Source of the DNA: Gammaproteobacteria bacterium
GTDB taxonomy: Bacteria > Pseudomonadota > Gammaproteobacteria > Tethybacterales > Persebacteraceae
Length of the DNA stretch: 64,000 nucleotides
Assembly: GCA_965221835.1 (NCBI GenBank)
Contig: OZ244916.1
Coordinates: 654,477 to 718,476 of the forward strand
Direction: 5' to 3'
The notes under the pieces were generated by a model that saw only the letters and a list, made by a program, of their open reading frames with translations, made no database searches and was not told where the DNA came from. Positions 1-57,776 of this stretch are shown in pieces (position 1 is the first letter of the stretch; every line of letters starts with the position of its first letter). The translations under genes and the position numbers were made by a program.

Positions 1-1226
1 ATCGCGGCGATTGGCGACGCGCGATGGACACATTGCATTCCACAAATAACTTTCCCGAATTTACCGGACGCGTCTGCCCCGCCCCGTGCGAATCCGCCTG
101 CACGCTAAATATTAACGACGATGCGGTAACAATTAAATCCATAGAACGCGCGATTGTCGACAACGCATGGAACGAAGGACAAATTGCACCGCTGCCGCCG
201 CAAACCAAAACCGGCAAACGAGTCGCCGTTGTCGGTTCCGGTCCGTCCGGACTCGCTTGCGCACAACAACTCGCGCGCGCCGGACACGCCGTTGAAGTGT
301 TGGAAAAAAACGAAAAACCCGGCGGACTTTTGCGTTTCGGCATTCCCGATTTTAAGATGGAAAAATATCTCATAGACCGCCGCATTATGCAAATGGAATC
401 CGAAGGCGCGGTTTTCAAAACCGGCATAAATGTCGGCGGCGACACGGACGCAAAAAAATTGGCGCGAGAATACGACGCTGTCGTTATCGCTTGCGGTTCC
501 GAAACGCCGCGCGATTTGCCGATTGACGGACGCGATTTGCGCGGCGTGCATTTTGCGATGGATTTTTTGCCGCAACAAAATCGCCGTGTCGCCGGATTGC
601 CGGTCGGGGCGGCGGACATTCTCGCCGCCGGAAAACATGTTGTCGTTATCGGCGGCGGCGATACTGGTTCCGATTGCATCGGTACTTCCAACCGGCAAGG
701 CGCAGCGGAAATTGTGCAATTTGAATTGTTGCCGCAACCGCCGCACGACGAAGACAAACCGCTGACATGGCCGCACTGGCCGCTAAAACTTCGCGCTTCT
801 ACTTCGCACGATGAAGGATGCGAACGCGAATGGGCGGTAATGACGAAAGCGTTTGTCGGCGACGAAAACGGCAATGTCCGCAAACTTCGCGGCGCGCGAG
901 TTGAGTGGAAAAACCAAAACGGAAAAATGAAAATGGAAGAAATTCCCGGCGGCGAATTTGAACTTCCCGCCGACCTCGTTTTGCTGGCGATGGGCTATAT
1001 GCATCCGACACAAAACGGAATGCTGTCCGATTTAAATTTGCAATTGGACGCGCGCGGCAACATTTTGGCGGACGACAAAAACTATAAAACTTCGGTAAAA
1101 AACATTTTCGCCGCCGGCGACTGCCGCCGCGGTCAATCCCTCGTCGTCTGGGCAATCCGCGAAGGACGACAATGCGCCCGCGCAGTAGACAAATTCCTCA
1201 CCGGCAAATCGGATCTGCCGCGATAA
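1..1226 (+). CDS. gltD: Glutamate synthase small (beta) subunit, 5'-partial. The reading frame is open from position 1. The encoded protein contains [24 protein letters not shown] and GGGDTGSDC motifs.
   Basis: The ORF translation matches GltD along its whole length, covering the 4Fe-4S region and both nucleotide-binding motifs. There is no stop codon between position 1 and the listed ATG at 24. Confidence 0.9.
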
Positions 1227-1249
1227 AAAATTTCGCAAATCGCGGCAAC

Positions 1250-1876
1250 ATCATAATCCACACCCGCCCAAATGGGCGGGTGAATACTGACGAATTTCGA
1301 GTTGTGTGTGCGGCTGTTTCAATCCACACCCGCCCAAATGGACGGGTGAATGTTGGATAATCACATTCCCGACACTTTTGAGTTTCAATCCACACCCGCC
1401 CAAATGGACGGGTGAATCCACGAAGTCGCAGGGATATGAATCCAACGGTTTCAATCCACACCCGCCCAAATGGACGGGTGAATGACGAAATAAAACTCAA
1501 GCATCCGGTCTATGTTTCAATCCACACCCGCCCAAATGGACGGGTGAATCGGCAGTACGGTTGTTATAACTTCGGCATTGTTTCAATCCACACCCGCCCA
1601 AATGGACGGGTGAATTTCGGCGGCAGAGTCCTCATCTTGTTCTCGTTTCAATCCACACCCGCCCAAATGGACGGGTGAATGGCGGCGGCGGTTTTTCCTT
1701 GATTTTATCGTTTCAATCCACACCCGCCCAAATGGACGGGTGAATCAATTTCCTTCAATGCCATTTTCATATTGTGTTTCAATCCACACCCGCCCAAATG
1801 GACGGGTGAATAAAACCCGAATATGAAGCGGGTTTTCTTTGTTTCAATCCACACCCGCCCAAATGGACGGGTGAAT
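1250..1876 (-). CRISPR. CRISPR array of 10 repeats and 9 spacers. The repeat is 36 bp, GTTTCAATCCACACCCGCCCAAATGGACGGGTGAAT on the plus strand. Its reverse complement ends in GATTGAAAC, as type I-C repeats do. Spacers are 29-30 bp. The terminal repeat at 1250-1285 is degenerate.
   Basis: The repeat recurs with a 65-66 bp period at 1316, 1382, 1448, 1514, 1580, 1645, 1710, 1776 and 1841. Every spacer is unique. The repeat contains an internal palindrome, CACCCGCCCA / TGGACGGGTG. The array abuts the cas genes. Transcription is inferred to run on the minus strand, from the leader at 1877-1939. Confidence 0.95.
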
Positions 1877-1939
1877 AGCAAAATGTTAAAGATCTGTTAA
1901 TTCGCTTTTTTGCGAATAATCGGCGAATTAAAATTACTG
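1877..1939 (-). promoter_or_regulatory. AT-rich CRISPR leader lying between the cas7 stop codon and the first repeat.
   Basis: This is a 63-bp AT-rich stretch sitting directly between the cas7 stop at 1940 and the leader-proximal repeat, which ends at 1876. The repeat-degeneration gradient is consistent with this orientation. Confidence 0.6.
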
Positions 1940-2834
1940 TTATTTTAACCAATCTTCCAGCGTTACGCCCCAACTTTTCGGCGGCGTTTCGGCGGATACT
2001 TCAAAATCGGAAAAAGAACGCGGCGGCGCGGCGGCGTTTTTGCGCGCTACTTTTACCAAATCAAATAACTGATGCGCCGGTCTGTTGCCGAGTTTGCCAT
2101 CGTGCTTAAAAACATACAAACCGCGGACGGACATCATCCCGCGCGCCGCCGAACGGTCGTGTTCAAACATATTCCGCAACGCCTCCCAAAACAACGCCAA
2201 ATCTTCATCGGAAAAACCGATCCGCCGCCAAATGCGCCGAAATAAATCCGTGCGCGCGATACAGCGAATATGGAATCGTGTGCTTCCGCCCCATCGTCCG
2301 ATTGTCGCCGCTTTGTTTTTGCGCCTCCTTTTCGGTGGTGACCGCCATCCGCGTAATGGAATGTTCCAGCGAAACAATCGGCGCAACCGAACGCGCAAAA
2401 GTCATCTGCACCGGTCCGCGCACCTGTCCGCAATTGACGCCGGTGGACATCACCGCGCCGAAAGTGCGAATGTCGTAAAAATTGCCGCACATCCATTTGC
2501 GGAGATTTTTCGGTTCCCTTTCCGTTTTTGTCAACGCGTCATGGGCGCGCTGGTGTTGATTGTTCAGCACTGCCTTTTCTTTTACATAAATTTCATGGCG
2601 CGGCGACTCGCCGATTTTATAACTCTTCGGCTTGCCGTCCGCTTCGTCTTCCGCAAACTTCATTTCCACATAGTTGCGAATTTTGCGTTTCAGGCATACA
2701 TCGGTTACCAGCCCGTCGCCGGTTTCCGCGTCTATGCGCGGGTGATTTCCCGCATCGGGGTCGCCGTTCGGATTGCCGTCCAGCACATCAAAAAGCAATA
2801 CAAAATCATGCCGGTTTTGGATGGGATTATTCAT
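1940..2834 (-). pseudogene. cas7: Type I-C Cas7 (Csd2) with a broken reading frame. The N-terminal 209 aa and the C-terminal roughly 90 aa lie in different frames.
   Basis: The N-terminal part, [56 protein letters not shown], is a classic Csd2 start. That frame stops at 2205 after [15 protein letters not shown] second frame covering 2398 to 1940 carries the expected continuation, [27 protein letters not shown]...LFDLVKV. The junction lies near 2218-2226 in the sequence gcggcggatcgg. A strong RBS (aaggag) precedes the ATG at 2834. Confidence 0.7.
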
Positions 2835-4590
2835 TGTTATTCTCCTTTTTTGTGAAAAAATTCTGCCGCTGATGATAGTAGCCGAGGGCAAACAGCCCCT
2901 GCTCCTGCATTGTCAGTTGCGGCGGGAAATTGGCGAGTTTGCACATAATTTCGCCGACGGTTTTTTGGCGATTGACGGCAAGCCCGGGTTTGGCGTCTTT
3001 TAGTTTACTCAGATGGTGTTGGTGCAATTTTATCAGCGCGGGAAATGCCGCACCCGGCGACGATGACGCCGCACCGTAATAGCGGTCGCGAATGGTGGCG
3101 TTTATGCCGGGATTCGCGTCTTCTTGCAATTTTTCCAGCGCGGCAAACAACGCGCCCAGCCAATACCCCGGCGATTTAACTTCCGGATCCAGTTTCATAT
3201 CAATCTCCTTGTTGAGTTGCAAAGCGGGCGGCAATTGTTCCGCCCGATAAAATCGGTTTATGCAACCGCGCAAAAGCGCGGCGCGGTCCGGCGAAACATT
3301 TTCGCGTCGTTCCCCGTATTTTACGCCCGCGCGGCAACGATTGACCGCCGCCAGAAATGCCGTGCGCGGATACGGCGAATTTTGCAATATCGCCTGCATC
3401 ATTTCGCCGCCCAAATTGGGCGGGATATTGTCCGCCTTGCCTTGCACCGCCGTGGCAACCAGCAAACGAAATAGCCCCGGCGGGCGGGAGTCGTCCGCGC
3501 CGTCAATTTTAATGTCGTCAAAATGCCGCCGAATTCTTTCCGCAACATCTCCTACCGTTCCGTCGTGCCAAAAACGCACCGTCAACCGCACGCGATTCGC
3601 CCACAATCCCAGCACATAAAACGGCAAATCGCCTTCCGCGGCGTATGTTTTTCCGCTTCGGGGCGATTCGTACAATTTTTTCACCGCGGCAGTCCGGCGG
3701 TCGGGATTGTCTTCGGATGCGCCGCCAAATAAAACGCTAAAATCGGTTTCCAGTAGCGCGTCCTTTCCCGCCCAAAACACGGCGGTAGAATCGCCGACCT
3801 TGATTTTTTGTTCGCCAGTCAGCAGCATATTTAACGCGGCGGTGTATTTGTACATTGTCGCTTTTCCCACGGACGCATTTTTTGCCTTTGTTTTGCCGTA
3901 CGAATTAAACGCCGATTGCTTAAACGCGATAACTCCCGCGCCCGCCCCCGCACCGTTCACGCCGCGCACCGCGTTGTGCATATCCGGTATTTCGTCTTCG
4001 TCTCCGGAAATAATGCACCGTCCGTCCGGTTTCGCCGCCGCGCCGACATTTCGTTTTATTTCCGCCGCAACCGGCGGCGAATCGGAAACTATCGCATAAT
4101 CCGAATTTGCCAACTGAAACGACAAATACGCCAGACGCAAACGTTCATCACAAATTTCCGCCCACATCGGATCGCCGCGCACCGCGTCCATATCGGGATT
4201 TTGCAGAAACGCGACAACCGCGCGAACGCCCGAATCTTCGGCGACACTCTCCGGAATTTGCGTTTGTATTTTCCGCAAAAAACTTTCGCGGCGTTTTTTT
4301 GATACGGCGGCGGATGTGCCGCCGACTCCGAAAATATATTCCAAATTGTCGTACAATAAATTCGGATTTATCGCGCTTCCGCCGCGACACGACGGTTTAA
4401 TTGCAACTCTAACCGTATACTTCCCGCCGCGGTCTTTCGCATCGGCGCGGGTATCCTTAAAACCGGCAAACTCGCCGCTTTCGTTCAACACAATCAAAAA
4501 CGGAATTGGTTGATGTTCAAATCCCAGCGGCGGCATTTCGCCGCGCAACATTTTGCGGTCGTAATATTCCGTCAACGCGCGAACAGTCAT
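2827..4590 (-). CDS. cas8c: Type I-C Cas8c (Csd1) large subunit.
   Basis: The 587-aa translation begins [41 protein letters not shown], matching Csd1. It is positioned between cas5c and cas7, as in a canonical I-C operon. Confidence 0.85.
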
Positions 4591-5237
4591 TTGCGAATTT
4601 CCGCGCTATCGGGCGGCGGCAGATGAATCACGCCGTTTTGCATTTTCGCCCGAAACATCATCGGTTTCATTTCATCGGCAAAATCAATGTCGTACAACAT
4701 AAATCCCAAATCGCGGGAGTCGTCAATCGCCGCCCGTGCCGCCGCTTTCGTTCCCGGCGTTGCCAGACAAAACGCCGCCGAAAATTCGCGACATCCCAAA
4801 TACGGCTGATTAAAACACTGCCCTTTTTCCGCCCGCCGCGCAAATATTTCGGCGAATTTAACAATGCCGTCGCCCTCGCCCGCCTTGTCGGTCAATTGCA
4901 ACCGCGCATGCAAACGATACGCCACATCGCGCAAAAACAATCCCGCCCGCTGTTGCCGGTCTTCTTCCACATAAATTCCGCAACCCGCTTTGGACGGCGG
5001 ACGCGCAACACTCCCCACTTCGTTGCGGCGAAGATTAATCCACCGAATCGGTTTTAGTACTTCAATTTTTTCGGGAATCCACCTGATTGCCGGTTTCCAC
5101 ATAATCGCCTCAAAAATCGCCCGCGCCGCGGACGGAGTCATCACATCATAAGAAACGCGTTCCACTTTCATTTCCGGGCGCGTAAAGCAGGCAAAATCGC
5201 CCCAAACTTTCAGGCAAAAAGACGGCGACGATTTCAT
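4587..5237 (-). CDS. cas5: Type I-C Cas5c (Csd5d), the pre-crRNA-processing Cas5.
   Basis: The 216-aa translation contains FCLKVWGDFACFTRPEMKVERVSYDVMTPSAARAIFEAIMWKPAIRW, the Cas5d signature. Its stop overlaps the cas8c start by 4 bp. Confidence 0.9.
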   Translation of the reverse strand: MKSSPSFCLKVWGDFACFTRPEMKVERVSYDVMTPSAARAIFEAIMWKPAIRWIPEKIEVLKPIRWINLRRNEVGSVARPPSKAGCGIYVEEDRQQRAGLFLRDVAYRLHARLQLTDKAGEGDGIVKFAEIFARRAEKGQCFNQPYLGCREFSAAFCLATPGTKAAARAAIDDSRDLGFMLYDIDFADEMKPMMFRAKMQNGVIHLPPPDSAEIRK

Positions 5238-5245
5238 AACCGCGA

Positions 5246-7510
5246 TTATACTCCGCCCCGCCCGGGAATCGCAAACCCCGTTTCGTCCGAATAATTCGCC
5301 GCGCCCGATTCCGTCAGCACAAAAACGCCCGCCGTCAATTCTTCTATTTCGCCGCGACCGCGCATTTCGTCAAAATCTTTTTCCGGCACAGAAACCGAAA
5401 ACCGTTGCAACCCGCGCATCGTTGCACGCAAACGCGCACCTTCCGCCATCTGCAACGTTTTCCGCATTTTTTCGGAACCGGTATACCAAACGATAACCGG
5501 AATTTTTCCGTCTTCTTCAATAAACCGGAACTTCGCCGCCGCATCCCGAAATTGCATCTCGTCCGAACTCAACAGCCGGGAAATTCCTTTGTCATCAAAA
5601 TTGCGAATATCCCGATACAACAATTCAAAATAGCGGCGAAACTTGTCCGGCGTAAACATATCGTCGTCCGCGGCGAACAATTGCCGCATTTCTTGCACGA
5701 CCTGCCACCCCTGACGGATAAAACCCGGCGGCGGTATTTTCGGCGGCATAAACACGCGCAACTCGCCGCCGTCCGGCAATTTTCCTTCGCGGTTGCATCT
5801 TCCCGCCGCCTGCGCAATAGAATCCAATCCCGCCAGCGCGCGCCAGACGACCGGAAAATCAATATCCACGCCCGCCTCTATCAATGTCGTACTGACGACA
5901 ATCACTGGTTCGTTATTTTTCAATCGCGCCTTGATTTTTGCAATTTGTCGCGCGCGATGTTCGCCGCACATCAGCGCGGACAAATGAAAACATTCGGCGG
6001 CACCCCGTCCGATTGCGGACATTCGCGCCTTCGTTTTTTCGTACAAATCGCGGCACTCGTTCCGGCTGTTGACGATGCAAAGCGCGGATTTGTTTTCGCA
6101 AAGTTTTACGGCGATTTCGTCCCATTCCGTTTTTGACAAATCCCAGCGCGCGCGTACGCGCCGGAATTGGTCGCGGCGGAACAATGTTTCCGGCTGTTCG
6201 CAAACTTCGCGCGGCGCGCTGTTCAACGCCGCTTTCGCTTTCCGCAACGATTCCGCCCGAAACGCCGGTTGCGTAGCGGTGCAAAAAACAAAACTCGTTT
6301 TGTAAAACGCCGTCAATTCTTCAATCGCCGCCAAAGTCGGCGCGATCAATTCCAGCGGCAACGTTTGCGCTTCGTCCAAAATAACGACCGAATCGGCGAT
6401 GTTATGCAGTTTGCGACATTTCCCCGGCGCGGCGGCGAAAAGCGATTCAAAAAATTGCACATTCGTCGTAATGACAATCGGTGCGTCCCAATTTTCGGTT
6501 GCCAGCCGATTTTTGTACGCCGCGCGGCGCGCCTGTTCGTCTTCGGATTCTTCGCCGCGAATGTTGGAATGATGTTCCACGACATTGTCGTCGCCGAAAA
6601 CGCCGCGAAAAATATCGGCGGTTTGTTCAATAATGGAAGTGAACGGAATGGCGTAAATAATTCGCCGTTTGCCGTGCGCCGCGGCATGCGCCAGCGCGAA
6701 CGCCATGGACGACAATGTTTTGCCGCCGCCGGTCGGCACCGTGAAACTGAACAATCCCGGCGACTGTTCGCCCGCCGCAACGCATTGCGTCAAAATGTCG
6801 GCGCGGATTTTGTCAATCGCCGTTTTTTCCGCGTCCGTCTTAAAACCTTTCATATAGCCGTCAAACTTTTCGCGCAACGCGGAAATTTCCGCATAATCGC
6901 CGCGCACCGGCGGAACAGGCGAAGAAGATTTTTCCGCATGCAACCGGTCGGCATCCACCAAACACGAAAACAACATTCGCGTCCACAAAGAAAGTCGAAT
7001 CCAAGAAGGGGCGTTTTCATGTCCGGTGTTGCGGCGCAAACACGCCAAACCGGGAATTGTCGCGTTGCGCACAAATTCGGGAAAATGTTTCTCGTTTTTG
7101 CGCGCCTTATCCAGCCATTCGCCTTCGCGGAAAATTCGTTCTTCCAAACTCGCGCCTTTCGCATCGCCGTCTCCGCAATTCGGCAAGCCGGTGTGATGTC
7201 CGAAAATGACAAACGACAACAACTTCGCCGCGCATTTTTCTTCCGCATTTTTTGCGAGAAAGTTTTGCGCGTACAATCCGCCCGCCGAGGAATGTTTAAT
7301 TTTTCCGCGCGGCGCATTAATTTCGCCGCGTAAATATTGTTGAAACTCATCGCCGTATTTGCCGAGGTCGTGCAATCGCCCCGCCAACGTCGCCCATTCT
7401 TTCGCGCCAAAAACGGCGGCAAATCCTCCCGCATTTTTACCGACCGAATTTAAATGTTCCGCCAAATCGCATTTGGTGTTTTCGGAAAAATGCGAAAAAA
7501 ATGTTTTCAC
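5246..7510 (-). CDS. cas3: Cas3 HD-nuclease/helicase with a GTG start.
   Basis: The 754-aa translation has an N-terminal HD domain (HDLGKYGDEFQ), a Walker A motif (VPTGGGKT) and a DEAD-like VILDEAQ motif. The GTG start lies 4 nt after the mpl stop codon. Confidence 0.9.
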   Translation of the reverse strand: MKTFFSHFSENTKCDLAEHLNSVGKNAGGFAAVFGAKEWATLAGRLHDLGKYGDEFQQYLRGEINAPRGKIKHSSAGGLYAQNFLAKNAEEKCAAKLLSFVIFGHHTGLPNCGDGDAKGASLEERIFREGEWLDKARKNEKHFPEFVRNATIPGLACLRRNTGHENAPSWIRLSLWTRMLFSCLVDADRLHAEKSSSPVPPVRGDYAEISALREKFDGYMKGFKTDAEKTAIDKIRADILTQCVAAGEQSPGLFSFTVPTGGGKTLSSMAFALAHAAAHGKRRIIYAIPFTSIIEQTADIFRGVFGDDNVVEHHSNIRGEESEDEQARRAAYKNRLATENWDAPIVITTNVQFFESLFAAAPGKCRKLHNIADSVVILDEAQTLPLELIAPTLAAIEELTAFYKTSFVFCTATQPAFRAESLRKAKAALNSAPREVCEQPETLFRRDQFRRVRARWDLSKTEWDEIAVKLCENKSALCIVNSRNECRDLYEKTKARMSAIGRGAAECFHLSALMCGEHRARQIAKIKARLKNNEPVIVVSTTLIEAGVDIDFPVVWRALAGLDSIAQAAGRCNREGKLPDGGELRVFMPPKIPPPGFIRQGWQVVQEMRQLFAADDDMFTPDKFRRYFELLYRDIRNFDDKGISRLLSSDEMQFRDAAAKFRFIEEDGKIPVIVWYTGSEKMRKTLQMAEGARLRATMRGLQRFSVSVPEKDFDEMRGRGEIEELTAGVFVLTESGAANYSDETGFAIPGRGGV

Positions 7511-7514
7511 TTTT

Positions 7515-8861
7515 TTAGATGTTTTTCACCATTTCCGCCACGGTTTGCGGGAGGTTGGCGAAGTCGCCGTTGGACATTAATATTATGCAGTCGTTTGTGC
7601 GGATTTCGTGGTGCAAGTAGTCGGCGGCGGTGGCGGCGGTCGGGAAAACTTTTGTTTTTTCGGGCGGCAGAAATGTCGCCAACCATTCTTGTTCTCCGAC
7701 TGCGACAACTTTGTGTGCCGCAGCGAAAGCGTTCGGTAAACGCGCGCGCAATGCGCCCGCTTTCATCGTGTTGGAACGCGGTTCAAACACTGCGACAATT
7801 CGTTTTTGCGGATATTCCGCCGCCGCTGCTTCCAAAGTTTTGCGGTAGGCGGTCGGATGATGTGCGAAATCGTCGTAGACCAAAATTCCGTTCGCGTCTG
7901 CAAGTTTTTGCATTCGCCGCAACGGCGGACGAAATCCTTGCAAATAATCCGGCAGTTTGCGCACATCCGCTCCCGCATAATGTGCGGCGGCAGCGGCGGC
8001 GAGAATATTGTCGCGATTCGCTTCGCCGAACATCGGCGGAACAAACGCGCACATTTCTTCGCCGCGATAATAAACGCGCATTATTTTTCCGTCTTTGTCG
8101 CGTCTTTGCCATTCGCCGCCTTTTCCGAATTGCGACAGCGGCGAATATATTCCCGCCTTCGCCGCCGCGCGCAAATAACGCGAACGGGCGCGCATAATCA
8201 CCCGCCCGTTGCCGGGAACGCAACGCAACAAATAATGAAACTGTCGCGCGATTTCGTTTTCATTACGATAAATATCTGCGTGATCAAATTCTAAATTATT
8301 TAACAACGCGATGTGCGGGCGGTAATGCAAAAACTTCGGACGTTTATCAAAAAACGCCGTGTCATATTCGTCCGCTTCAACTACAAACCATTCGGAATTG
8401 CCGCTGCGTGCGGAAACGCCGAAGTTTGGTGCGATTCCGCCTGCCAAAAATCCCGGCGACAAACCGGCGCGTTCCAAAATCCATGCCAGCAATGCTGTCG
8501 TTGTTGTTTTGCCGTGCGTGCCGGCAACCGCTAATACTTTTCTGTCGGCGAGAATATTTTCGCCAAGCCATTGCGCCGCCGAAATATACGGACGGCGTTC
8601 CGCCAACACCGATTCCACCAACGGATTGCCGCGCGAAACCGCGTTGCCGACAATATACAAATCGGCGGGACGGTCAACGACTGTCGCCTCGTATCCTTCG
8701 TATAACTTCGCGCCCGATTGTCGCGCCGCATCGCCGAAAGGCGGATAAAATGCGCGGTCGCTGCCGCAAACAGTGAATCCTTTTTCCGCCGCCAGTTGTG
8801 CAACCCCCGCTCCCAATGCGCCGGCGATTCCGATGAAATGCAAATGTTTCATCGCCGCCAA
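7515..8861 (-). CDS. mpl: UDP-N-acetylmuramate:L-alanyl-gamma-D-glutamyl-meso-DAP ligase.
   Basis: The 448-aa translation shows the Mur ligase fold, with GIAGALG and GTHGKTTTT motifs and an Mpl-like C-terminus. Confidence 0.9.
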   Translation of the reverse strand: MAAMKHLHFIGIAGALGAGVAQLAAEKGFTVCGSDRAFYPPFGDAARQSGAKLYEGYEATVVDRPADLYIVGNAVSRGNPLVESVLAERRPYISAAQWLGENILADRKVLAVAGTHGKTTTTALLAWILERAGLSPGFLAGGIAPNFGVSARSGNSEWFVVEADEYDTAFFDKRPKFLHYRPHIALLNNLEFDHADIYRNENEIARQFHYLLRCVPGNGRVIMRARSRYLRAAAKAGIYSPLSQFGKGGEWQRRDKDGKIMRVYYRGEEMCAFVPPMFGEANRDNILAAAAAAHYAGADVRKLPDYLQGFRPPLRRMQKLADANGILVYDDFAHHPTAYRKTLEAAAAEYPQKRIVAVFEPRSNTMKAGALRARLPNAFAAAHKVVAVGEQEWLATFLPPEKTKVFPTAATAADYLHHEIRTNDCIILMSNGDFANLPQTVAEMVKNI

Positions 8862-9526
8862 AGCGGTTTGATTCCGGTATCTTTTTCCATCGCATCCAAA
8901 AATAATTCGTGTGCGGCAAGTTCTGTTGCAGACGGCGCGCGCGAAATAATTTTTTTCGCTTGCAAAATATCTTTTGCTTTTGCACCGCGCGACATACTCA
9001 TCGCGATTTGTTCACGCGTCATTGCAAAATAAACTTGCGCCAAAAGACGGGCGTCCAAAAGCGCGCTGTGTGTTGTGCGTTCCGAATCGTCAACGCCGAA
9101 ATGTTTGCATAAATCTTCCAAACGATGATGCCGAAGTCCTTGGTTTTTTAGACGCGACATTTCCAAAGAACATGTTATTTTGCAAATATCTTCCAGCGGC
9201 GGCATTCCGCATATTTTAAATTCTGAATTTAAAAATCCTTTGTCAAAAGCGGCGTTGTGAATAATGACTTCGCCGCCTTGCAAAAAGTTTTGCAATTGTT
9301 CTGCAATTTCCGAAAAATCCGGTTTGTCCGCCAAAAACTCATCGGAAATGCCATGTACTTTTTTTGCGTCCGCATCAATAGCGCGATGCGGATTGCAGAA
9401 AAAATGTATACTTTCAAACGCGTTCGTGCGGCGGTCGGGATAGGTCAGGGCGACGACTTCCACGATGCGATGTCCGCGTTCCACTTCCAAACCGGTAGTT
9501 TCGGTATCCAAAAAAATTTGTCTCAT
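8849..9526 (-). CDS. dnaQ: DNA polymerase III epsilon subunit (3'-5' exonuclease). The true start is the internal ATG at 9526 of the longer listed ORF.
   Basis: The translation begins [13 protein letters not shown] and contains HNAAFD. This gives a 225-aa product. The upstream extension of the listed ORF overlaps rnhA. Confidence 0.9.
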
Positions 9527-9960
9527 TGTTGTGCCGCCTCGCTTGCGCCCCGGTTTGCCAAATTGTCCGCCGCTTCGTTGCCGTCGTTGCCCGCATGCCC
9601 TTTCAGCCACCGCCATTCCACGCGATGACGCATCGCTGCTTGTTTTAGCAACTTCCACAAATCTGCATTTTTTATCGGGCGTTTTTTGGCGTTGAGAAAT
9701 CCGCGCCGTTCCCAATTCGGCAACCATTCGGTAATTCCTTTTTGCAAGTACGCGGAATCGGTATACAACACCACTTCGCATTCGCGTTTTAACGATTCCA
9801 GCGCGCGAATTGCGGCGCACATTTCCATCCGATTGTTGGTTGTGTCGCGTTCGCCGCCGTACAATTCTTTTTTCGTTTCGCCCCAATACAATACCGCCCC
9901 CCAGCCGCCGGGACCGGGATTGCCTTTGCATGCGCCGTCCGTATAAATCACAACTTTCAT
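9523..9960 (-). CDS. rnhA: Ribonuclease HI.
   Basis: The translation begins [21 protein letters not shown] and runs to DNLANRGA, 145 aa. Its stop overlaps the dnaQ start by 4 bp. Confidence 0.9.
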
Positions 9961-10658
9961 CGCCGGCACTCCGCTTTTGCTTTGGACGGCGCACGCCAGA
10001 ACGGAATGCGGCGATGACGCAAACGCCGAATCATTCGCATCCCGCAAGTATATTTTGTCGCGCTTAAAATATAAACGCCGCCGGCAAGCGGCCACCATCG
10101 CCGTCCGGCTTTTTCCATCCAGCCGAACCATTTACGATGACGGCGGCGATGCGGCGGCATAAACGCCGCGAATTGTCCTTCTTCGGCGGATAAATTCAAC
10201 AGCGTCAACCAATCTTTAACGCGCATCAGCGAAATCCAGTTTTTGCGCCACGGCATTACCGAAATCCGCGCACCCAACAAACTCCACGGATTGAATCCTA
10301 TAACCAACAGCCGCCCGTGCGGACGCAACACCCGCGCCGCTTCGCGCAATACTTCGTGCGGCGCACCGGATGCTTCCAAAGCGTGCGCAAGAACGATGCA
10401 ATCTACCGATTCCGCGGCAAACGGCAATGCCGTCCAGTCGGCGACAATGCTGCAATCGCGATTGACGCCGACAATCGCATGACTGCGCACCGGCACGCGC
10501 AAAATGCGGCGGCGATAACCGAGTTGCAACGCATAAAATCCGAACACTTCGCCGCTCATCATCCGGCAGCAACGCATTTCTTGCGCCATTATGCCGCGCC
10601 CGAATTCGGACGCGAACCAGTTTTCGGATTTGTTTTCGCCGGCGGATTGTATTAACAT
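9957..10658 (-). CDS. Class I SAM-dependent methyltransferase. The start is uncertain: M1 at 10658 or M24 at 10589.
   Basis: The translation contains a VLDLACGTG-like methyltransferase type 11 region ([23 protein letters not shown]...[11 protein letters not shown]). It sits downstream of rnhA, as in other Neisseria genomes. Confidence 0.7.
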
Positions 10659-10665
10659 TTACGGG

Positions 10666-11427
10666 ATGAGTTTTGACATACAAATTATTAACGCGTTTGC
10701 CGACAATTATATCTATTTGACGGCGGCGAACGGTAAAACCGTCGTCGTAGACCCCGGCGATGCGGATGCGGTATCGGATTCGTTGCCCGCACAAACGGCG
10801 TTGGAAGCGATTCTTCTCACCCATTCGCATGCCGACCACATCGGCGGTGTGCGGACGTTGATGCGGCGTTTTCCGTCTGCGAAACTATACGCCGCCGAAG
10901 AATGCGGTTTCGCCGCAGCCAGAATCTGCGCAGAAGGTGCGCAAATCGCGTTATTGAACGGCGCGCTTAATCTTGCGACAATGGAAACGCCCGGGCATAC
11001 CGCCGGGCATATTTCGTTTTACGGCAGCGGCGTTTTATTTTGCGGCGATGTTATGTTTGCCTGCGGTTGCGGCAGATTGTTGGGCGGTACGGCGGCGCAA
11101 ATGCAAAACTCTCTCGCCCGTTTCGCCGCCCTGCCCGCCGACACGAAAGTTTATTGCGGACACGAATATACGCTTGCAAATATCGCCTTTGCGCGGGCGG
11201 CGGATTGCGAAAACGCCGCTTTGCGCGAACGGCAAAAAATCGCCGAAAACTTGCGCGCCCGCCGATTGCCGACAATCCCTTTCACCATCGCCGAAGAGTT
11301 GGAAACTAATCCGTTTTTGCGTTTGGATTCGCCCGCCGTCATCGCCGCCGCCCGCGCCCGAAATCCCGCCGCCGCCGACAAAACCGCCCTTTTCGCCGCT
11401 TTGCGAGAATGGAAAGACGATTTTTAA
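10666..11427 (+). CDS. gloB: Hydroxyacylglutathione hydrolase (glyoxalase II).
   Basis: The translation begins MSFDIQIINAFADNYIYL and contains THSHADHIGG and GHEYT motifs. The start is placed at the internal ATG at 10666. Confidence 0.85.
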   Translation: MSFDIQIINAFADNYIYLTAANGKTVVVDPGDADAVSDSLPAQTALEAILLTHSHADHIGGVRTLMRRFPSAKLYAAEECGFAAARICAEGAQIALLNGALNLATMETPGHTAGHISFYGSGVLFCGDVMFACGCGRLLGGTAAQMQNSLARFAALPADTKVYCGHEYTLANIAFARAADCENAALRERQKIAENLRARRLPTIPFTIAEELETNPFLRLDSPAVIAAARARNPAAADKTALFAALREWKDDF

Positions 11428-11543
11428 GAAGGTGCAACAAAATACTGAATAATGGATATTTGTCGGAGAAGGGCAATATGGTTTATGGGCTGTGGCAGAT
11501 AAGAACCATCTTGCATTAAATAAGAATCGGCGGCGGCAGAATG

Positions 11544-11582
11544 ACAAAAACCGGCGGGGATTCCGTTTCCCCGCCGTTTTTT
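11544..11582. terminator. Intrinsic terminator hairpin, CCGGCGGGGATTCCGTTTCCCCGCCG followed by T6. An identical copy is present at 23668-23714.
   Basis: An 8-9 bp GC-rich stem with a U-tract lies downstream of gloB. A 39-bp identical sequence recurs about 12 kb away. Confidence 0.7.
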
Positions 11583-11738
11583 ATGGGAATTCGGCGCGCT
11601 GTGGAATTCGCAACTTCGGCGATAAACGGCGGCGGGAAAATCCGCAACTGCGGCGAAAGTTTATTCTCGGAAGCGAACGCGGGAATGGAAAAAAGCGGCA
11701 ATTTTTTCGGTTTGCGGTCTTTGCGCTATAATTGACGG

Positions 11739-12251
11739 ATGCAAAAAAATATGTCCGAAATGCGCGCGCGATTTCGCCGCTATCTATCTTCGCTTTTGCT
11801 TGCAGAATTGTGCCGGGGAATGGCGCTGACTTTCCGGCAGATGTTCCGCCGCAAAATCACCGTGCATTTTCCCGAAGAAAAAACACCGCGCAGCCCCCGA
11901 TTTCGCGGACTGCACGCCTTGCGCCGCTATCCGAACGGCGAAGAACGATGCATCGCTTGCAAATTGTGCGAGGCGGTTTGTCCGGCGATGGCGATTCATA
12001 TCGCTTCCGAACAACGCGAAGACGGCAGCCGCCGCACTACTCAGTACGACATTGATTTAACCAAATGCATTTTTTGCGGAATGTGCGAAGAGGCGTGTCC
12101 CGTTGATGCAATTGTAGAAACGCATGTTTTGGAATATCACGGCGAACGGCGCGGCGATTTGTACTACACAAAAGAAATGCTGCTCGCCGTGGGCGATAAA
12201 TACGAAGCGGAAATCGCTTCCGCCCGCAAAACCGATGCCGCTTATCGCTAA
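11739..12251 (+). CDS. nuoI: NADH-quinone oxidoreductase subunit I (2x[4Fe-4S] ferredoxin). It is isolated from any nuo operon.
   Basis: The translation contains [31 protein letters not shown] and [18 protein letters not shown], and is near-identical to NuoI over its full length. A TATAAT box lies about 20 bp upstream. Confidence 0.85.
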
Positions 12252-14418
12252 ACTTTTCCGCGCAACGGCGGCGGCGATTGTTCTCGGCATATTGTCGCCA
12301 TCTTTCGCCGAACCCGTCTCGGCGTATTCGCCGGAAAAAGAAATAGAAGAATTGGAACAGCGGTTTGTGCGCCAAGAAATTCTCGCCTTGCAGCGGGTGG
12401 AAGATGTGGAAACGCGGATTGAAATATTGGACCGCCATTTCAATCGCGTTTTTTTGATTTTGGGATTATCGGCGGCACTTGCGTTGATGCTTTTCGCCGC
12501 CCATCAACGCAGTCGCAATCGCTTAAATACCGAACGCTTAAATCGTGCCGTGCGCGAAGCCGATATGTTGCGAGACGATATTCGCCGCGAATTGCATCGC
12601 CCGGAAACGGAGTTTTTGCGCATCGGACATTTTTTGCGAAGAATGATGCGCGAATCGCTGGACGCCAAACCCGCCGAACGACATTTTTCGGAAATTCGTG
12701 CCATTATTCGCGACCCTAATGTGCCGGTGTCGCTGCATTATATGGCGCAAATTTTGCTTTTTGAACACGATTCGCGTTGGCGAGATGCCGAACATGTTTT
12801 GGAACAACTTCGGCAAATGGATCCCGAAGATCCTTTCGTACTTTTGCATTTATTTCATGTACATACCCGCATTTCCGAAGGTTCGGGCGATTCGTACGAC
12901 CGCAAACGCCATCGTCAAACCGCAAATCAATACTACGCCCAATTTGCAGTTATCGCGCAAACAAAAGACATTCCCGCCTCTCCGGCAACGGCGAAAAAAT
13001 CCCCGCCCGCCCCGAAAACGCCGCCCCCGGCAATTGCCGCCGCCGAATCCGAATCCGAAAACGCTTCCAAAACTGCCGAAAACGATTCCGAATTTGATTC
13101 CGAATCCGCCGCCGAAAACATTACCAAAAACGCCGCTGAATCCAAATCCAAATCCGCCGCCGAATCCGAATCCAAATCCGCCGCCGAATCCGAATCCGAA
13201 TCTGCATCCAAAATTGCCGAAAACGTTTCTGAATCTGATTCCGAATCCGTTGCCAAATCCGCCGCCGAATCTAAATCCAAAACTTCCGAAAACGTTTCTG
13301 AATCTGATTCCGAAAACATTGTCAAAAACGCCGCTGAATCCGAATCCAAATCCGCCGCCGAATCTAAATCCAAAACTTCCGAAAACGTTTCTGAATCTGA
13401 TTCCGAATCTGCTTCCGAAAACATTGTCAAAAACGCTGTTGAATCTGAATCCAAAACTTCCGAAAATGTTTCTGAATCTGATTCCGAAAACATTGCCGAA
13501 AACGTTTCTGAATCTGAATCCAAAACTTCCGAAAAAGATTCCGAAAACGATTCTGAATCTGAATCCGAATCTGGTGCGGAAGTGCAAACGAATATTTCCA
13601 AACCGCAATCGGAAATTGTGCATACAAAACCCGCGCAATCGCCGCCGGTTAAAACCGAATTCGCTCCTCCTCAAATTGTACCGCCCAAACCGCCGAAAAC
13701 GGCGGAAACAAAGCCCGCTCCGAAAATGCCGCCGTCATTGCCGTCCGCCGCAAACGGCAAAAAACGTCCCGCCGAAAATTTATTAATGAAAAAAATCGGC
13801 AAACTATCATGGCGGGGAATCGGCGGCGCAATCAAAAACAAAACCGTCAATTTAATCGGCGAAGCAACGAATGTTGCCGGAAAAATTAACAACGGCGCGA
13901 ACGGCGACATCCCGCCGTTTTTGCCGGTGCCCGCAATTTCCGAATTGCCGGAAAAAAAAGGAACGGCAGAAAGCGAAATGTGGAAATGCATTCGCGCCGG
14001 TGATTTGGCAATGGCGCAAGCCGCCGCAGTTGCGAATATGCGTCATCGCAATCGTTTGATAGACCGCGCGTTAATTTCTTATGCGCAAGCGCAAGGACAC
14101 AAAACTAACGAAACTTTGTATTTGAATTGGGGATTGTCTTTGCTCGGCAAGGCGTTGCATTTGCCGCTCAAAAAACGCGAACCATTTTTTAATGCCGCCA
14201 TAGATAAATTTTTGGCGGGCAATGTTATCAGTCCGCACCGTTTTGATTTTTCGCTGGCGACTTTATACGCTATCATCGGGCGCGAAACCGAGTGCAAACA
14301 ATGGCTTGCCACAGCGCGCGAATCGGGAACGCTGAATTTGGAATCGTTGCATCATGCGCCCGATTTTGACGGCGTGCGCAATCAGCCGTGGTTTGCCGAA
14401 TTCATGCGCGACGAATGA
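12235..14418 (+). CDS. Hypothetical membrane protein. It has an N-terminal signal/anchor, a coiled coil, a second transmembrane segment, an acidic Ser/Glu-rich tandem-repeat region, a Pro/Lys-rich linker and a C-terminal helical (TPR-like) domain.
   Basis: The 727-aa reading starts at the ATG at 12235, overlapping the nuoI end. Hydrophobic segments [14 protein letters not shown] and [18 protein letters not shown] are present. Repeats of the form [31 protein letters not shown] recur. A proline-rich stretch, [28 protein letters not shown], follows. Confidence 0.6.
13020..13600 (+). repeat. Imperfect in-frame tandem repeats of roughly 69-bp units, encoding Ser/Glu/Lys-rich acidic repeats.
   Basis: The motif gaatc(c/t)gaatccaaa(a/t)c... 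recurs many times. Antisense and alternative-frame ORFs here are artefacts of this repeat: 12698-13786 (PNPNPP-rich) and 12850-13674 (GFGFGG-rich). Confidence 0.8.
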
Positions 14419-42121: not shown

Positions 42122-43555
42122 TCAGAAACGATGAATCGCGTTTATTTGGAATCTGGCGTTTTCGGTGAAATCTTTTGCGTTTTCCCAGCGGAATCCGGCG
42201 GAGGGGAGAATCGTCCAGCCGTCATAACGGAAATTGCCTTGCAGATTTAACTCGTTGCGAGTTTCCGTTTCGCCTTTGTCATATTCGGAGTGCAGGCGAT
42301 AGACGGGGGAAAACATCATTAAACTCCCGTCTATATCCGCCGACAGCATAAATGAGGAGTTAGCCGTCTCGCCTGCAACGGATTCGGAAAATGCCGCTGT
42401 AAATAAATCGCCGTTATATTTTCCGCCCGATGTGTAGCGGAAATCACCGAAATCGCCGTTTGCGTTTGTTTGTTTTGCGGTGTAATACAAATGCCAATTG
42501 TCTTTGCGGAAATCCGCCCGTCCGCCGACATTTGCGTAATAGCCGCTTTCGGTTATGGAATAGCCGAAATCGGGCGACATATTAAAAGACGGAACGCCGC
42601 CTGCCAAAAATACCGCTATCACTCCGACAGCCAAAAGTCCGGTAGCGGTATTGATAGATTTTACCCTTCTCTCCTTATTATCCGCCCGATTTTGCGGTGT
42701 TTGCGTTGTCGGATTTTGCGTTTCCGGCGGATTAGTTCCCGTTTCCGTGTTGCCGTCTTGCGGATTTTCCGTTTCCGTGTTGTCGTCTTGCGGATTTGTT
42801 TGACAAATTCCGGCGTCGTCTCTTGTTTCAGTATCCAAACATGCGTCTACGCAAACGCCGTTAACAAAATCGGGAGTCGCCCCCGGGCAATCGGCGGCGG
42901 ATTCAATTGCACGGCAAGAAAGTCCGCCTGTTTCCAAAATCGGCAATTCATCGGTTGCACATTCGCATGCATCGCCCGCCTCGTTTAAGTTTGCAGTCGT
43001 GCCATCGCAAAAATCGGTTTCAATTATCGTATCGCAAGTTGTCGTTCTTCCCGCATCCGCCGCCGTGAAAGTAAACACATCGGTCAGCGGGATAGCATTT
43101 TCGGTTATATCCCGTGCAACGACAAGACAATCGCAGTTTGCGGGATCTGCACACTGATTCATTGCATGTGTGTGTGCCTCTGCTGCGGTGTCGCCTAGTC
43201 CCTCAATAGTTGCTACATCTCCTAAATTGGGTATGGATAAATCTGCATAAACGGCAAAATATTCCTCACCATTAACATTTCTTGCTACTGCTGAACAAGT
43301 ACTAGCAGTATCAGGATGAGATTGACATGTTAAAGCTGAATGAGCTACTGCAAGACGTTCCGTTTCTCCCATAACCTCCTCTGCAGGATAGCCGACAGCA
43401 ACACCGATAATAAGTATTGTTGGGTCTGGGCTGCCCGGACTAAAATCAGTATCAAATCCGGCAGTAGCAGCCCCTTCTGCATTTGCGGAAATGTTAGACA
43501 ATCCCGCCGCAAAAAAGACGGCGGCGATGATGATTTTATTGATTGTGTTTTTCAT
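42122..43555 (-). CDS. Hypothetical secreted or surface protein. It has a signal peptide, a Cys/Asp/Thr-rich central region, and a C-terminal region rich in aromatic/Gly beta-strands that ends in RF, which is outer-membrane-barrel-like.
   Basis: The start is at MKNTINKIIIAAVFFAAGLSNISANA with a strong RBS (gaggag). The C-terminus, ...FRWENAKDFTENARFQINAIHRF, has a terminal Phe. The listed 632-aa ORF over-extends into the upstream repeat array. Confidence 0.6.
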   Translation of the reverse strand: MKNTINKIIIAAVFFAAGLSNISANAEGAATAGFDTDFSPGSPDPTILIIGVAVGYPAEEVMGETERLAVAHSALTCQSHPDTASTCSAVARNVNGEEYFAVYADLSIPNLGDVATIEGLGDTAAEAHTHAMNQCADPANCDCLVVARDITENAIPLTDVFTFTAADAGRTTTCDTIIETDFCDGTTANLNEAGDACECATDELPILETGGLSCRAIESAADCPGATPDFVNGVCVDACLDTETRDDAGICQTNPQDDNTETENPQDGNTETGTNPPETQNPTTQTPQNRADNKERRVKSINTATGLLAVGVIAVFLAGGVPSFNMSPDFGYSITESGYYANVGGRADFRKDNWHLYYTAKQTNANGDFGDFRYTSGGKYNGDLFTAAFSESVAGETANSSFMLSADIDGSLMMFSPVYRLHSEYDKGETETRNELNLQGNFRYDGWTILPSAGFRWENAKDFTENARFQINAIHRF

Positions 43556-43684
43556 GGTTTTGCTCCTCTGATTAAAAATGTCTGCGAAAGTATAACACAT
43601 TCCGCCCGAATCAACAAAAAAACGGGCGGGTTCGGCAAGAAATGCGTAAATTGCTGATTTCCCGCCTTTTTTCTGCATTTCCGT

Positions 43685-43936
43685 GCGTTCGGAAATGTTT
43701 TCAGAGCGTTCCAAAATGTTTTCAGAGCGTTCGGAAATGTTTTCAGAGCATTCCGAAAAGTTTTCAGAGCGTTCGGAAATGTTTTCAGAGCATTCCGAAA
43801 TGTTTTCAGAGCATTCCGAAATGTTTTCAGAGCGTTCGGAAAAGTTTTCAGAGCGTTCGGAAATGTTTTCGGAGCGTTCGGAAATGTTTTCAGAGCATTC
43901 GGAAATGTTTTCAGAGCGTTCGGAAAAGTTTTCCGA
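43685..43936. repeat. Twelve tandem copies of a 21-bp unit (GCGTTCGGAAATGTTTTCAGA and variants), 130-380 bp upstream of the 42122-43555 gene.
   Basis: The units are head-to-tail with an exact 21-bp period and minor variants (gcattccgaaat, gcgttccaaaat). The ORFs 43642-44052 and 43683-43967 are translation artefacts of this array. Confidence 0.9.
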
Positions 43937-44035
43937 GACCTCGCAAAACATTTGCGGGGTTTTGTGAACGCCCTTTTTTGCCGAAAATTTTCGGCTGTGG
44001 TACAATTGGCATTCGCACATTTGGAATTGAAATTA

Positions 44036-48686: not shown

Positions 48687-51452
48687 TTAATGTGTGATGA
48701 GTGCGGGCGGGGCGGTTTTCGGGGGTTTCGGGGTTTTAATTGGTGCATCGGCGGCGCGTTTGCGCGCGGTTTTGGCGGCGGGCATTTTGACAAGCGCCAG
48801 CGCAAAAACTTCGTCCACCCATTTGACCAAACAGATTTCAAACTTGTTTTTGATTTCTTGTTGGATTTCTAAAAGATCCTTTTCGTTTTCGGATGGCAAA
48901 ATAACGCGATTAATACCGCCGCGCGCCGCCGCGAGAAGTTTTTCTTTTACGCCGCCGACCGGCAATACTTCGCCGCGCAAAGTAATTTCGCCGGTCATCG
49001 CAACATCGGCGCGCACGGGAATATCGGCGACCGCGGACAAAATTGCCGTGGCAATGGCGACGCCCGCCGACGGACCGTCTTTGGGAATCGCGCCTTCTGG
49101 CAGGTGAATGTGAAAATCGCTTTCGCGCCACAACGCGGGCTTAATTTGATAGTTGTCGCACCGGCTGCGCACGGCGGAAAAAGCGGCGTCCACCGATTCT
49201 TGCAATACTTGTCCGAGTTTGCCGGTGCGCATGATTTTTCCGCGTCCGGCGAACTTGCACGATTCTATGGAAAGCAAATCGCCGCCGGTCGCCGTCCATA
49301 CGAGTCCGGTGACTTGTCCGACTTTGTCGTCCGCCGCCGATACGCCGAAACGGTGTTTGCGCGGCCCGAGATATTTGTCCAACGACGAAGCCGACACCCG
49401 CCGTCTGCGAACGCGTACGACATTTTCGGCGATGTTTGTTTTTTTCGCGATTTTGGCAATTTTGGTTTTTGCGCGTCTTTTTTTGGCGCGCGCGGAATCG
49501 TCGGCGGTGCGATCAATATCCAGAACGATTTTGCGGCACACCTTGGAAATACAACGATCCAAGGCGCGTACGCCCGCTTCGCGCGTGTAATAGCGAATCA
49601 TACCGCGCACGGCGGATTCTGTAATTTGCGCCTCTTTATTCTCCAGCCCGTTTTCTTTAAATTGGCGCGGAATAAGATGATCGCGGGCGATATTAATTCT
49701 TTCGTTTTCGGTGTAGCCGGATAAATTAACGATTTCCAACCGGTCCATCAGCGGCGGCGGAATATCCAGCGTGTTGGCGGTGGTGACAAACATTACTTCC
49801 GACAAATCAAAATCCACTTCCACATAATGGTCGGAAAAAGTCGCGTTTTGTTCGGGATCCAAAACTTCCAACAACGCCGAAGACGGATCGCCGCGAAAAT
49901 CGTATCCCATTTTGTCAATTTCGTCCAGCAAAATAATCGGATTTTTGACTCCCGCACGACTCATCGCGTTGATAATTTTTCCGGGCATTGAACCGATATA
50001 GGTGCGGCGATGCCCGCGAATTTCGGCTTCGTCGCGCACGCCGCCCAGCGAAATGCGCCCGAATACGCGCCCGGTCGCCGCCGCAATGCCGCGTCCCAAA
50101 GAAGTTTTACCGACTCCCGGCGGACCGACAAAACACAAAATCGGCGCTTTGCCGTTCGGTACGCGTTTTTGCACGGCGAGATGTTCCAAAATTCGTTCTT
50201 TGATTTTGTCCAGACCGTAATGATCCGAATCTAAAACTTTGCGCGCGTCTTTCGCCGAAACCGGCAGCGAAGTTCGCTTAACCCACGGCAGCGACAATAT
50301 GGTGTCTAAATAAGTACGCGTGACCGTTGCCTCGGCGGACATCGGCGGCATCATTTTTAGTTTGCGCATTTCCTGTTCGCATTTTTCGCGCGCCTGTTTG
50401 CTCATTCCCGATTTTTGGATGCGCTGTTTCATTGAATCCAACTCGGCATTTTGGTCGTCGCCGAGTTCGCGTTGAATGGCGCGCGCCTGTTCTTGCAAAT
50501 AATATTCGCGATGATTTTTTTCCATCTGATTTTTAATCCGCCCGCGAATCTTGCGTTCTATTTTTTGCACTTCGGTTTCGCGCCCGATAAGCGACAGCAA
50601 TCGCGCGGCGCGTTCGGCGACATCTGCCATTTCCAGCATTTCTTGCCGCTTTTTAATATTCAGCGGAAAGAAACCGGCAACATGATCCACCATCCGTTCA
50701 AAATCTTCAATCTCCTCTATTTTTGCCGACAAATCATCGCCGACTTTGTGATTAACCTTTGCATAAGAAGCAACGGCGGCGCGAAAAGACCGCAACAACG
50801 CGGTCGCTTCGTCAGCAGGCGGACGATTGACGGCGGGCATCGGAGAAACTTCGGCGGAAATTCGGGCGTTTTCTTCCACGCGATATTTCGCCTTGCCGCG
50901 CGAGATTCCTTCTACCAAAACTTTGACGGTGCCGTCCGGCAATCGCAACATTTGCAATACATTTGCCGCGCAACCGACATCGTATAAATCTTCCGCCGCC
51001 GGCGTATCGGTGTCGGGCGATTTTTGTGTTGCGAGAAAAACGCGCCCGCCTTCTTCCATCGCTTTGTTTAACGCGTCCAGCGACATTTGTCTGCCGACAT
51101 ACAAAGACAAAACGACTCGCGGAAATACCACGACATCGCGCAACGGTACCACTTGCATTCTCGTGTCATATTTCAATTCGCCGCCGCCCGCCGAATCGGA
51201 TTTTTTGACCGGCGCATTGTCGTTTGCGGAATCTGCCGCCGCATCCGCCGGGGATTCTTCCAAATCGGTCGGCGCGCGTTTTGTCGGATTTTTCGGCGAA
51301 TCCGCTGCGGCGGGTGCGCCGATAATCGCGTCTGTTGCGTCTATTGCCGCGTCTTTTGCGCCTGTTGTCGCGCCCGCAGCGGGTTCGTTTGCGGCGGAAT
51401 CGTCTTTAATGTCGCCGCCTTTTTTTATGTCGTCAAAACTGTCATCGCTCAT
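48687..51452 (-). CDS. lon: ATP-dependent Lon protease. The start is uncertain. The ATG at 51452 gives an acidic N-terminal extension of about 95 aa.
   Basis: The translation contains [10 protein letters not shown], the Walker A motif [11 protein letters not shown], and a C-terminal catalytic Ser-Lys proteolytic domain. Confidence 0.9.
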
Positions 51453-56657: not shown

Positions 56658-57776
56658 AAATTCCGAATTTCATCGGAATGGTAGAAGTTGGAAATTAGGA
56701 AAATAAAATTCACCATTCCCGTGAACGCGGCGGAATTCCGCAAAAAAACCCCGTCATTCCCGCGAAAGCGGGAATCCATTACGGGCGATTAATTTTAGAA
56801 TTTCCGCAAATTTTACGCGAAAATTAAATTTGAAAATTCCCGCATTTTTTCGCAAAAAACGAAGTGAAAGCGCGAATTTTACGCGAAAATTAAATTTGAA
56901 ATTCCCGCGAATTTTAAGCGAAAAACCCCCGTCATTCCCGCGAAAGCGGGAATCCATTACGGACGATTAAATTTGCAATTCCCGCAAATTTTACGCGAAA
57001 ATTAAGTTTGAAATTCCCGCACATTTTTTTGTGAAAAACGAGGTGAAGGCGGGAATTTGTCGGTAAAAATGGATTCCCGCTTTCGCGGGAATGACGGCGG
57101 GAATCCGCACATTTTACGCGAAAATTAAGTTTGGAATTTCCGCAAATTTTACGCAAAAAACCCCGTCATTCCCGCGAAAGCGGGAATCCATTACGGGAGA
57201 TTAATTTTAGAATTTCCGCGAATTTTACGCGAAAATTAAGTTTGGAATTTCCGCGAATTTTTTCGCAAAAAACGAGGTGAATGCGAGGGTTTGTCAGTAA
57301 AAATGGATTCCCGCTTTCGCGAGAATGACAAGGTGAAACCGCAAATTTTATGCGAAAATTAAGTTTCGCGAATTTTACGCAAAAAAACCCCGTCATTCCC
57401 GCGAACGCGGGAATCCATTACGGGAGATTAATTTTAGAATTTCCGCAAATTTTACGCGAAAATTAAGTTTGGAATTTCCGCATTTTTTCGCAAAAAACGA
57501 GGTGAAAGCGCGAAAACGAGGTGAATGCGGGAATCCATTTTGTCGCGAAAATTAAGTTTGGATTCCCGCTTTCGCGGGAATGACGGCGGGAATCCGCACA
57601 TTTTACGCGAAAATTAAGTTTGGAATTTCCATATTTTTTCGCAAAAAACGAGGTGAATGCGGGATTTTGTCGGTAAAAAATTCCCGCTTTCGCGGGAATG
57701 ACAAGGTGAAACCGTGAATTTTAAGAAAAAATTAAGTTTGGAATTTCCGTGCATTTTTTCGCGAAAAGGGTGGGAA
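56658..57776. repeat. NIME-like array of about 1.1 kb. It contains multiple dRS3 units (ATTCCCGCGAAAGCGGGAAT) in both orientations, separated by RS-like blocks of about 100-150 bp.
   Basis: At least 8 dRS3 copies are present. The block GATTAATTTTAGAATTTCCGCAAATTTTACGCGAAAATTAAGTTTGGAATTTCCGC recurs. The many small ORFs here are artefacts. Confidence 0.85.

Follow-up and report, generated by a model that had tools for sequence, protein, structure and literature searches.

A type I-C CRISPR-Cas interference operon lies on the minus strand at positions 1-7510 of the 64,000-nt stretch of DNA analyzed here (the window). In the preliminary description of this stretch, the cas7 (csd2) gene was held to be interrupted, suggesting an inactivated Cascade, with a sequencing indel and, less plausibly, programmed frameshifting named as other readings. 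The locus raises the question of whether the interruption belongs to the organism or to its assembly, and of what it would leave of the encoded immunity. The host, an uncultured gammaproteobacterium, has a ~2-Mb genome (window GC, 52.8%) and an enolase only 64% identical to its best named match, from Candidatus Persebacteraceae bacterium Df01 (order Tethybacterales). At least ten strain-level contigs are found in the ENA assemblies ERZ25072152, ERZ25070530 and ERZ25072479.

The remaining genes of the operon are intact (Table 1). The signature genes cas8c/csd1 and cas5c are present, cas6 is absent, and the interval from cas3 to the array holds no further gene. The cas3 frame has no internal stops and is equal in length to the copies in two conspecific loci, L001 and L022. 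Likewise, cas8c has no stops and at most one amino-acid difference from its relatives, and its stop overlaps the start of cas7 by 8 nt. The small subunit of type I-C systems is made by internal translation (bioRxiv 10.1101/2020.04.18.045682; PMC7684278), and the internal ATG at 3198, with its strong Shine-Dalgarno sequence, would yield such a Cas11c product from the cas8c message.

Table 1. Positions of the type I-C genes, the cas7 lesion, the leader and the CRISPR array in the window
Feature	Position	Strand	Remarks
cas3 (HD nuclease and helicase), 754 aa, intact	5246..7510	-	TIGR01596 (Cas3 HD), TIGR01587 (Cas3 core)
cas5c, 216 aa, intact	4587..5237	-	TIGR01876 positions 1-203/203, E 6e-57
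cas8c/csd1, 587 aa, intact	2827..4590	-	TIGR01863 positions 2-587/588, E 7.7e-138
Probable internal cas11c, 123-aa C-terminal cas8c product	2827..3198	-	In-frame ATG 3198, AAGGAG 6 nt upstream
cas7/csd2, N-terminal frame	2205..2834	-	TIGR02589 positions 1-195/284, E 1.8e-80
2-nt (AC) deletion site	2219..2220	-	DNA alignments with L001 and L022: GATACCGG there, GATCGG here
cas7, C-terminal third, +1 frame (GFSDEDL...LEDWLK)	1940..2218	-	TIGR02589 positions 194-282, E 6e-29
Leader, 63 nt, cas7 stop to first repeat	1877..1939	-	Identical to L022; one base differs from L001
CRISPR array, nine 36-nt repeats and one degenerate terminal repeat, 9 spacers	1250..1876	-	Arrays of L001 and L022 at 10960-11620 and 10960-11625 of their loci

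The interruption lies where the preliminary description had put it. The cas7 frame opens at ATG 2834 and reads through ...GCG GCG GAT CGG TTT TTC CGA TGA to a premature stop at 2207-2205, giving a product of 209 aa whose final four residues, RFFR, are out of frame. The C-terminal third continues in another frame to the TAA at 1942-1940 and is not translated from the cas7 start. No single-ORF cas7/csd2 is present in the window; the break falls at profile position 194/195 of TIGR02589, and in Pfam PF05107 the two parts of the gene match positions 1-171 and 173-247 of 249. The pieces abut in the profile with no residues lost, far above chance, and since the N and C parts adjoin exactly, the interruption is real in the sequence. 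Two details of the earlier account call for correction. The downstream frame, given there as -1, is in fact +1 (equivalently -2), as the codons of the N part start at positions ≡2 mod 3 and those of the C part at positions ≡1 mod 3 on the descending strand. Of the two alternatives offered for the 4 nt at the break, a shortfall from 6 nt or an excess over 3, the first is correct: GATC in the window corresponds to GATACC in the relatives, the missing AC falling between 2220 (T) and 2219 (C). Over a longer stretch, the site reads GGCGGATACCGGTTTTT in the relatives and GGCGGAT--CGGTTTTT in the window. The truncated Cas7 is without the last 93 of 298 residues, among them the highly conserved NMFEHDRSAARG block of the family.

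Comparison with the cas7 of close relatives, a check suggested at the outset, returned a single 298-aa ORF in both L001 and L022. A search with the repaired Cas7 placed four proteins in its 90%-identity cluster. Two of these are intact at 298 aa: P0001, from locus L001 on a circular 1,999,211-bp ENA contig, and P0122, whose locus, L022, lies on a 158,646-bp contig from that sample. The other two, P0121 (209 aa, identical to the N fragment of the window) and P0123 (76 aa, a C-terminal piece from an internal ATG), come from a single 1,984,335-bp contig (NCBI, ENA), presumed to belong to the genome of the window itself. Outside this cluster, the next relative among the homologues listed is only 69% identical. 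At the break site, LAADTGFSDEDL is found in both intact proteins. The L022 cas7 DNA equals that of the window except for the AC, with no synonymous and no non-synonymous differences, and the C part of the window gene is 100% identical to residues 207-298 of P0122. Because the L022 gene departs from the window gene only in having GATACCGG for GATCGG, the difference amounts to two nucleotides, AC. At this site the intact allele aligns without gaps to the Cas7 of D. vulgaris (7KHA: LAEKTGFSDEDL), which makes it the ancestral form, and the lesion is therefore a 2-nt deletion in the window. The picture is that of a recent-frameshift pseudogene, in which the orthologue is intact in close relatives and one indel explains the lesion. 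The lesion also looks very young, because window-specific amino-acid changes in the cas genes are near nil (three in cas3, none in cas5c, cas8c or cas7). Across the three strains carrying the I-C operon, the cas genes are >99% identical.

More distant comparisons agree on the expected form of the gene. Over its whole length the repaired protein is homologous to the Cas7 of D. vulgaris (7KHA, 8DEX) and Neisseria lactamica (8G9S), with E values from 3e-113 to 1e-103, and every one of the 120 homologues listed is a single protein of 290-323 aa. In a search of genome contigs with Cas7, all relatives were at or below 65% identity and no conspecific genome was among the matches; a scan of JGI metagenomes for the junction, in both alleles, gave 0 matches. 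The deleted allele is thus on record in one assembly only.

This single record is one reason to consider that the organism itself has an intact GATACCGG and that the gap arose in the sequencing, assembly or polishing of a multi-strain metagenome. Consensus building would be hard in a sample with at least ten strain-level contigs of the species, and the window cas7 is otherwise base-for-base equal to the intact allele. Against this, the context of the deletion, GATACCGG, contains no homopolymer and no short tandem repeat. In addition, the window was aligned over ~41 kb, at 98-99% identity, with 5-9 other strains (1-12,835 with L001 and L022; 11,361-20,050 with L028, L031, L034 and L036; 35,314-56,679 with L023-L027), and no second frame-breaking indel was found in the conserved genes of these stretches. 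Outside the CRISPR array, the other indels are intergenic (among them 1 nt at 11,603-11,605, T-run lengths at 17,595 and 11,688, and one at 43,991 ahead of proA), preserve the reading frame (mutL, 3 nt at 18,699; lon, a net change of 6 nt at 51,222-51,235) or lie within two hypervariable repeat-rich genes (12,124-14,418 and 42,122-44,020). An NCBIfam scan of 25 further ORFs of the window matched 22 to a family; with the exception of hemA, these aligned near-completely to the best-fitting or threshold-passing model. The assembly is not indel-prone, because its other indels break no conserved gene and the matched ORFs, hemA apart, are near full-length. The sole disrupted gene is a dispensable accessory defense gene, which is what purifying selection acting on a real mutation would predict. 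We therefore rank a real mutation as most likely and a consensus error second: cas7 probably carries a very recent, strain-specific 2-bp loss-of-function deletion that prevents Cascade assembly, whereas an artefact of the consensus is possible but unlikely. On this ranking we infer that the AC deletion is present in the organism and not in the assembly alone.

Two further candidates for disrupted genes were examined and rejected. The hemA match ends at position 338 of 416, and three-frame translation revealed no continuation; this hemA is simply shorter. The four minus-strand ORFs at 57.8-62.2 kb were considered as fragments of one giant gene, and the three that were scanned proved to be separate, full-length aroA, tyrA and hisC.

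If the deletion is real, a complete Cas7 might still be made by ribosomes that shift by +1 at the break, in a programmed or tolerated manner, restoring some full-length protein and throttling the dosage of Cascade. Such a shift could occur at GAU-C-GGU, to give LAAD-GFS, or by slippage of tRNA-Phe on a run of five U residues, to give LAADRF-SDEDL. The run (GGUUUUUCC) and a CGG codon do lie shortly 5' of the stop, and the product of a +1 shift would be one residue shorter than the wild type. Nevertheless, the arrangement is not shared by orthologues: cas7 is a plain ORF in the two nearest relatives, one of which is otherwise DNA-identical in this gene, and each of the 120 homologues listed is a single protein of 290-323 aa. 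Programmed frameshifting is unsupported because these nearest relatives need no shift, in line with the low plausibility it had been given from the start. At the site itself, no stop codon occupies the A site at the shift position, tRNA-Asp would have no re-pairing, and, when compared by eye with established +1 sites, only GGCGG is present in place of a good Shine-Dalgarno-like stimulator. A run of five U residues is shorter than efficient transcriptional slippage generally requires. Occasional spontaneous slippage on GGUUUUUCC is possible, and nothing suggests a programmed event, which we consider extremely improbable. Even less likely is a functional split Cas7, in which the 209-aa N fragment reassembles with a separate C fragment, such as the 76 aa encoded from ATG 2170. 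The gene caller did produce both fragments on the public contig (P0121 and P0123), but the 76-aa piece is missing a conserved 16-residue segment, and the 30 nt upstream of ATG 2170 carry, by eye, no evident AGGAGG-type Shine-Dalgarno sequence, the nearest being GGGAGG at 13-18 nt upstream. Moreover, no split Cas7 occurs among the 120 homologues listed.

Returning to the reading of a recent 2-bp deletion, its consequence for the effector can be anticipated from the architecture of the complex. Type I-C Cascade consists of seven Cas7, one Cas8c, one Cas5c and two Cas11c subunits with one crRNA, and the seven Cas7 subunits form a filament around the crRNA (PMC7684278). Because Cascade is built on this seven-Cas7 filament, a truncated Cas7 should fail to assemble. 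Judged from the family profile and the published structures, the AC deletion would abolish Cas7 function: translation from ATG 2834 would meet the TGA after 209 codons, a Cas7 without its C-terminal third would form no filament and hence no Cascade, Cas3 would not be recruited, and the nine spacers would give no interference, even though cas3, cas5c, cas8c/cas11c, the leader and the array are all intact. Inactivation of Cascade, as originally proposed, is accordingly the best-supported consequence of the lesion. In the DNA examined, neither a self-targeting spacer nor any other selective cause of a knock-out was found. The most likely account is thus an ordinary and recent knock-out by frameshift in a gene of known type, with an error of assembly as the less likely one. 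There is a very small chance of something more unusual, either low-efficiency +1 slippage that keeps a throttled Cascade or the selected switch-off of an adaptation-less I-C cassette that is hot-swappable and has its spacers renewed in trans; neither is supported by the evidence.

The absence of adaptation genes had been put forward as corroborating the inactivation, and this part of the argument does not stand. In the gene maps the CRISPR array directly follows cas7, and cas4-cas1-cas2 are absent from the locus. The ORFs downstream of cas7 in six I-C relatives, where cas4, cas1 and cas2 are expected (the ORFs were not individually identified), were used as tblastn queries against the 64-kb window and L001 and gave no match. 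The two strains whose cas7 is intact (L001/L036 and L022/L031) agree with the window in their cas3-cas5-cas8c-cas7-array layout, likewise without cas4, cas1 and cas2. Because these strains lack them too, the absence of the adaptation genes is a feature that the cassettes share and that predates the frameshift, and is no sign of decay in this strain.

The array of the window has the repeat ATTCACCCGTCCATTTGGGCGGGTGTGGATTGAAAC in cas orientation, ending in ...ATTGAAAC and containing a stem-loop read by eye from the sequence. Its spacers are 29-30 nt long, eight being tabulated and a ninth, of 30 nt, being read after the last canonical repeat, with a period of 65-66. Model type I-C systems have repeats of ~32 nt and spacers of 34-35 nt, so a 36-nt repeat with 29-30-nt spacers is unusual by comparison; from these lengths, a Cascade would be expected to contain six Cas7 subunits instead of seven. 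Each of the three I-C strains has nine spacers, and none is shared among the eight compared per strain, trailer end included. Such disjoint sets, at loci without cas1, cas2 and cas4, imply adaptation in trans or exchange of arrays. A 16-nt overlap, on opposite strands, between spacer 7 of the window and spacer 7 of L022 suggests that the two were acquired independently from one target. The target reconstructed from these two spacers had 0 matches in an IMG/VR scan. When 24 of the 27 spacers (eight per strain) were compared by BLAST with the window and 37 loci, neither self-targets nor targets in the alternative cassettes were found.

Set against known systems, the locus resembles the type I-C loci of D. 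vulgaris and N. lactamica in its cas3-cas5c-cas8c-cas7 order, its internal cas11c start and its repeat end ...GGATTGAAAC, and differs from them in a cas7 cut at residue 205 and in the absence of cas4-cas1-cas2. Where immunity is costly, cas function is commonly lost (PMC7145637). As in degenerate CRISPR-Cas loci, one disabling frameshift lies in an essential effector gene while the remaining locus is apparently intact; unlike such loci, the window has no further decay and no identified self-targeting spacer, and conspecifics are intact. With +1 frameshifting of the prfB type the window cas7 would have in common that the frame is restored by a +1 shift a short distance ahead of an in-frame UGA, but its site is without conservation, without a stop codon at the shift and without a proper Shine-Dalgarno stimulator.

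The operon is situated in the gap between mpl and gltD, which is a strain-variable defense hotspot (1227-7514 in the window, ~12,450-17,900 in L028-L037) with at least six alternative cassettes over ten conspecific contigs. The type I-C CRISPR-Cas cassette is found in the window, L031 and L036. Elsewhere, the same gap is filled by a 1617-aa type ISP restriction-modification enzyme (L029, L030), a methylase with a ResIII helicase (L034, L035), HNH_4 and AAA_17 proteins with the PADLOC candidate PDC-M11A/B (L028), HNH_4 with a C5 methylase and a type II REase-like protein (L032), or a PDC-M33A-like protein with three genes without family (L033, L037).

Strain-level variation was also observed at other places in the window. 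A hypervariable gene without family match, at 42122-44020 on the minus strand (~6800-8250 in L023-L027), lies beside a variable intergenic region. Its ORF measures 632 aa in the window; three strains have it as one ORF of 478-483 aa, whereas L024 and L026 have it broken up into two or three. The gene may encode a phase-variable or fast-evolving surface protein. On the plus strand, the gene at 12124-14418 encodes a repeat-rich protein of 764 aa, against 678-726 aa elsewhere, that differs in length between strains by in-frame repeat units and has a weak ClfA-like match in the repeats. Short dispersed DNA repeats of 85-90% identity link 56919-57767 of the window with 16118-16669 of L001; in L001 and L022 they fall in the region upstream of a gene of >2,600 aa, for which no protein-level match was found in the window. 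GCC/GGC triplet runs are the commonest 10-mers of the window, CGCCGCCGCC occurring 43 times. A full-length comEC is present at 53173-55482, and no uptake sequence of the Neisseria or Pasteurellaceae type was found in the whole window. An Rfam scan of the window returned two tRNAs and nothing else.

For annotation, these findings mean that cas7 is to be flagged as a frameshifted pseudogene or possible assembly error, and that counting the strain as CRISPR-competent would be unwarranted. The wider context, a defense hotspot and adaptation-less I-C cassettes with wholly different spacer sets, may outweigh the cas7 lesion itself, which adds one further case of a defense system turned off in one strain of a population.
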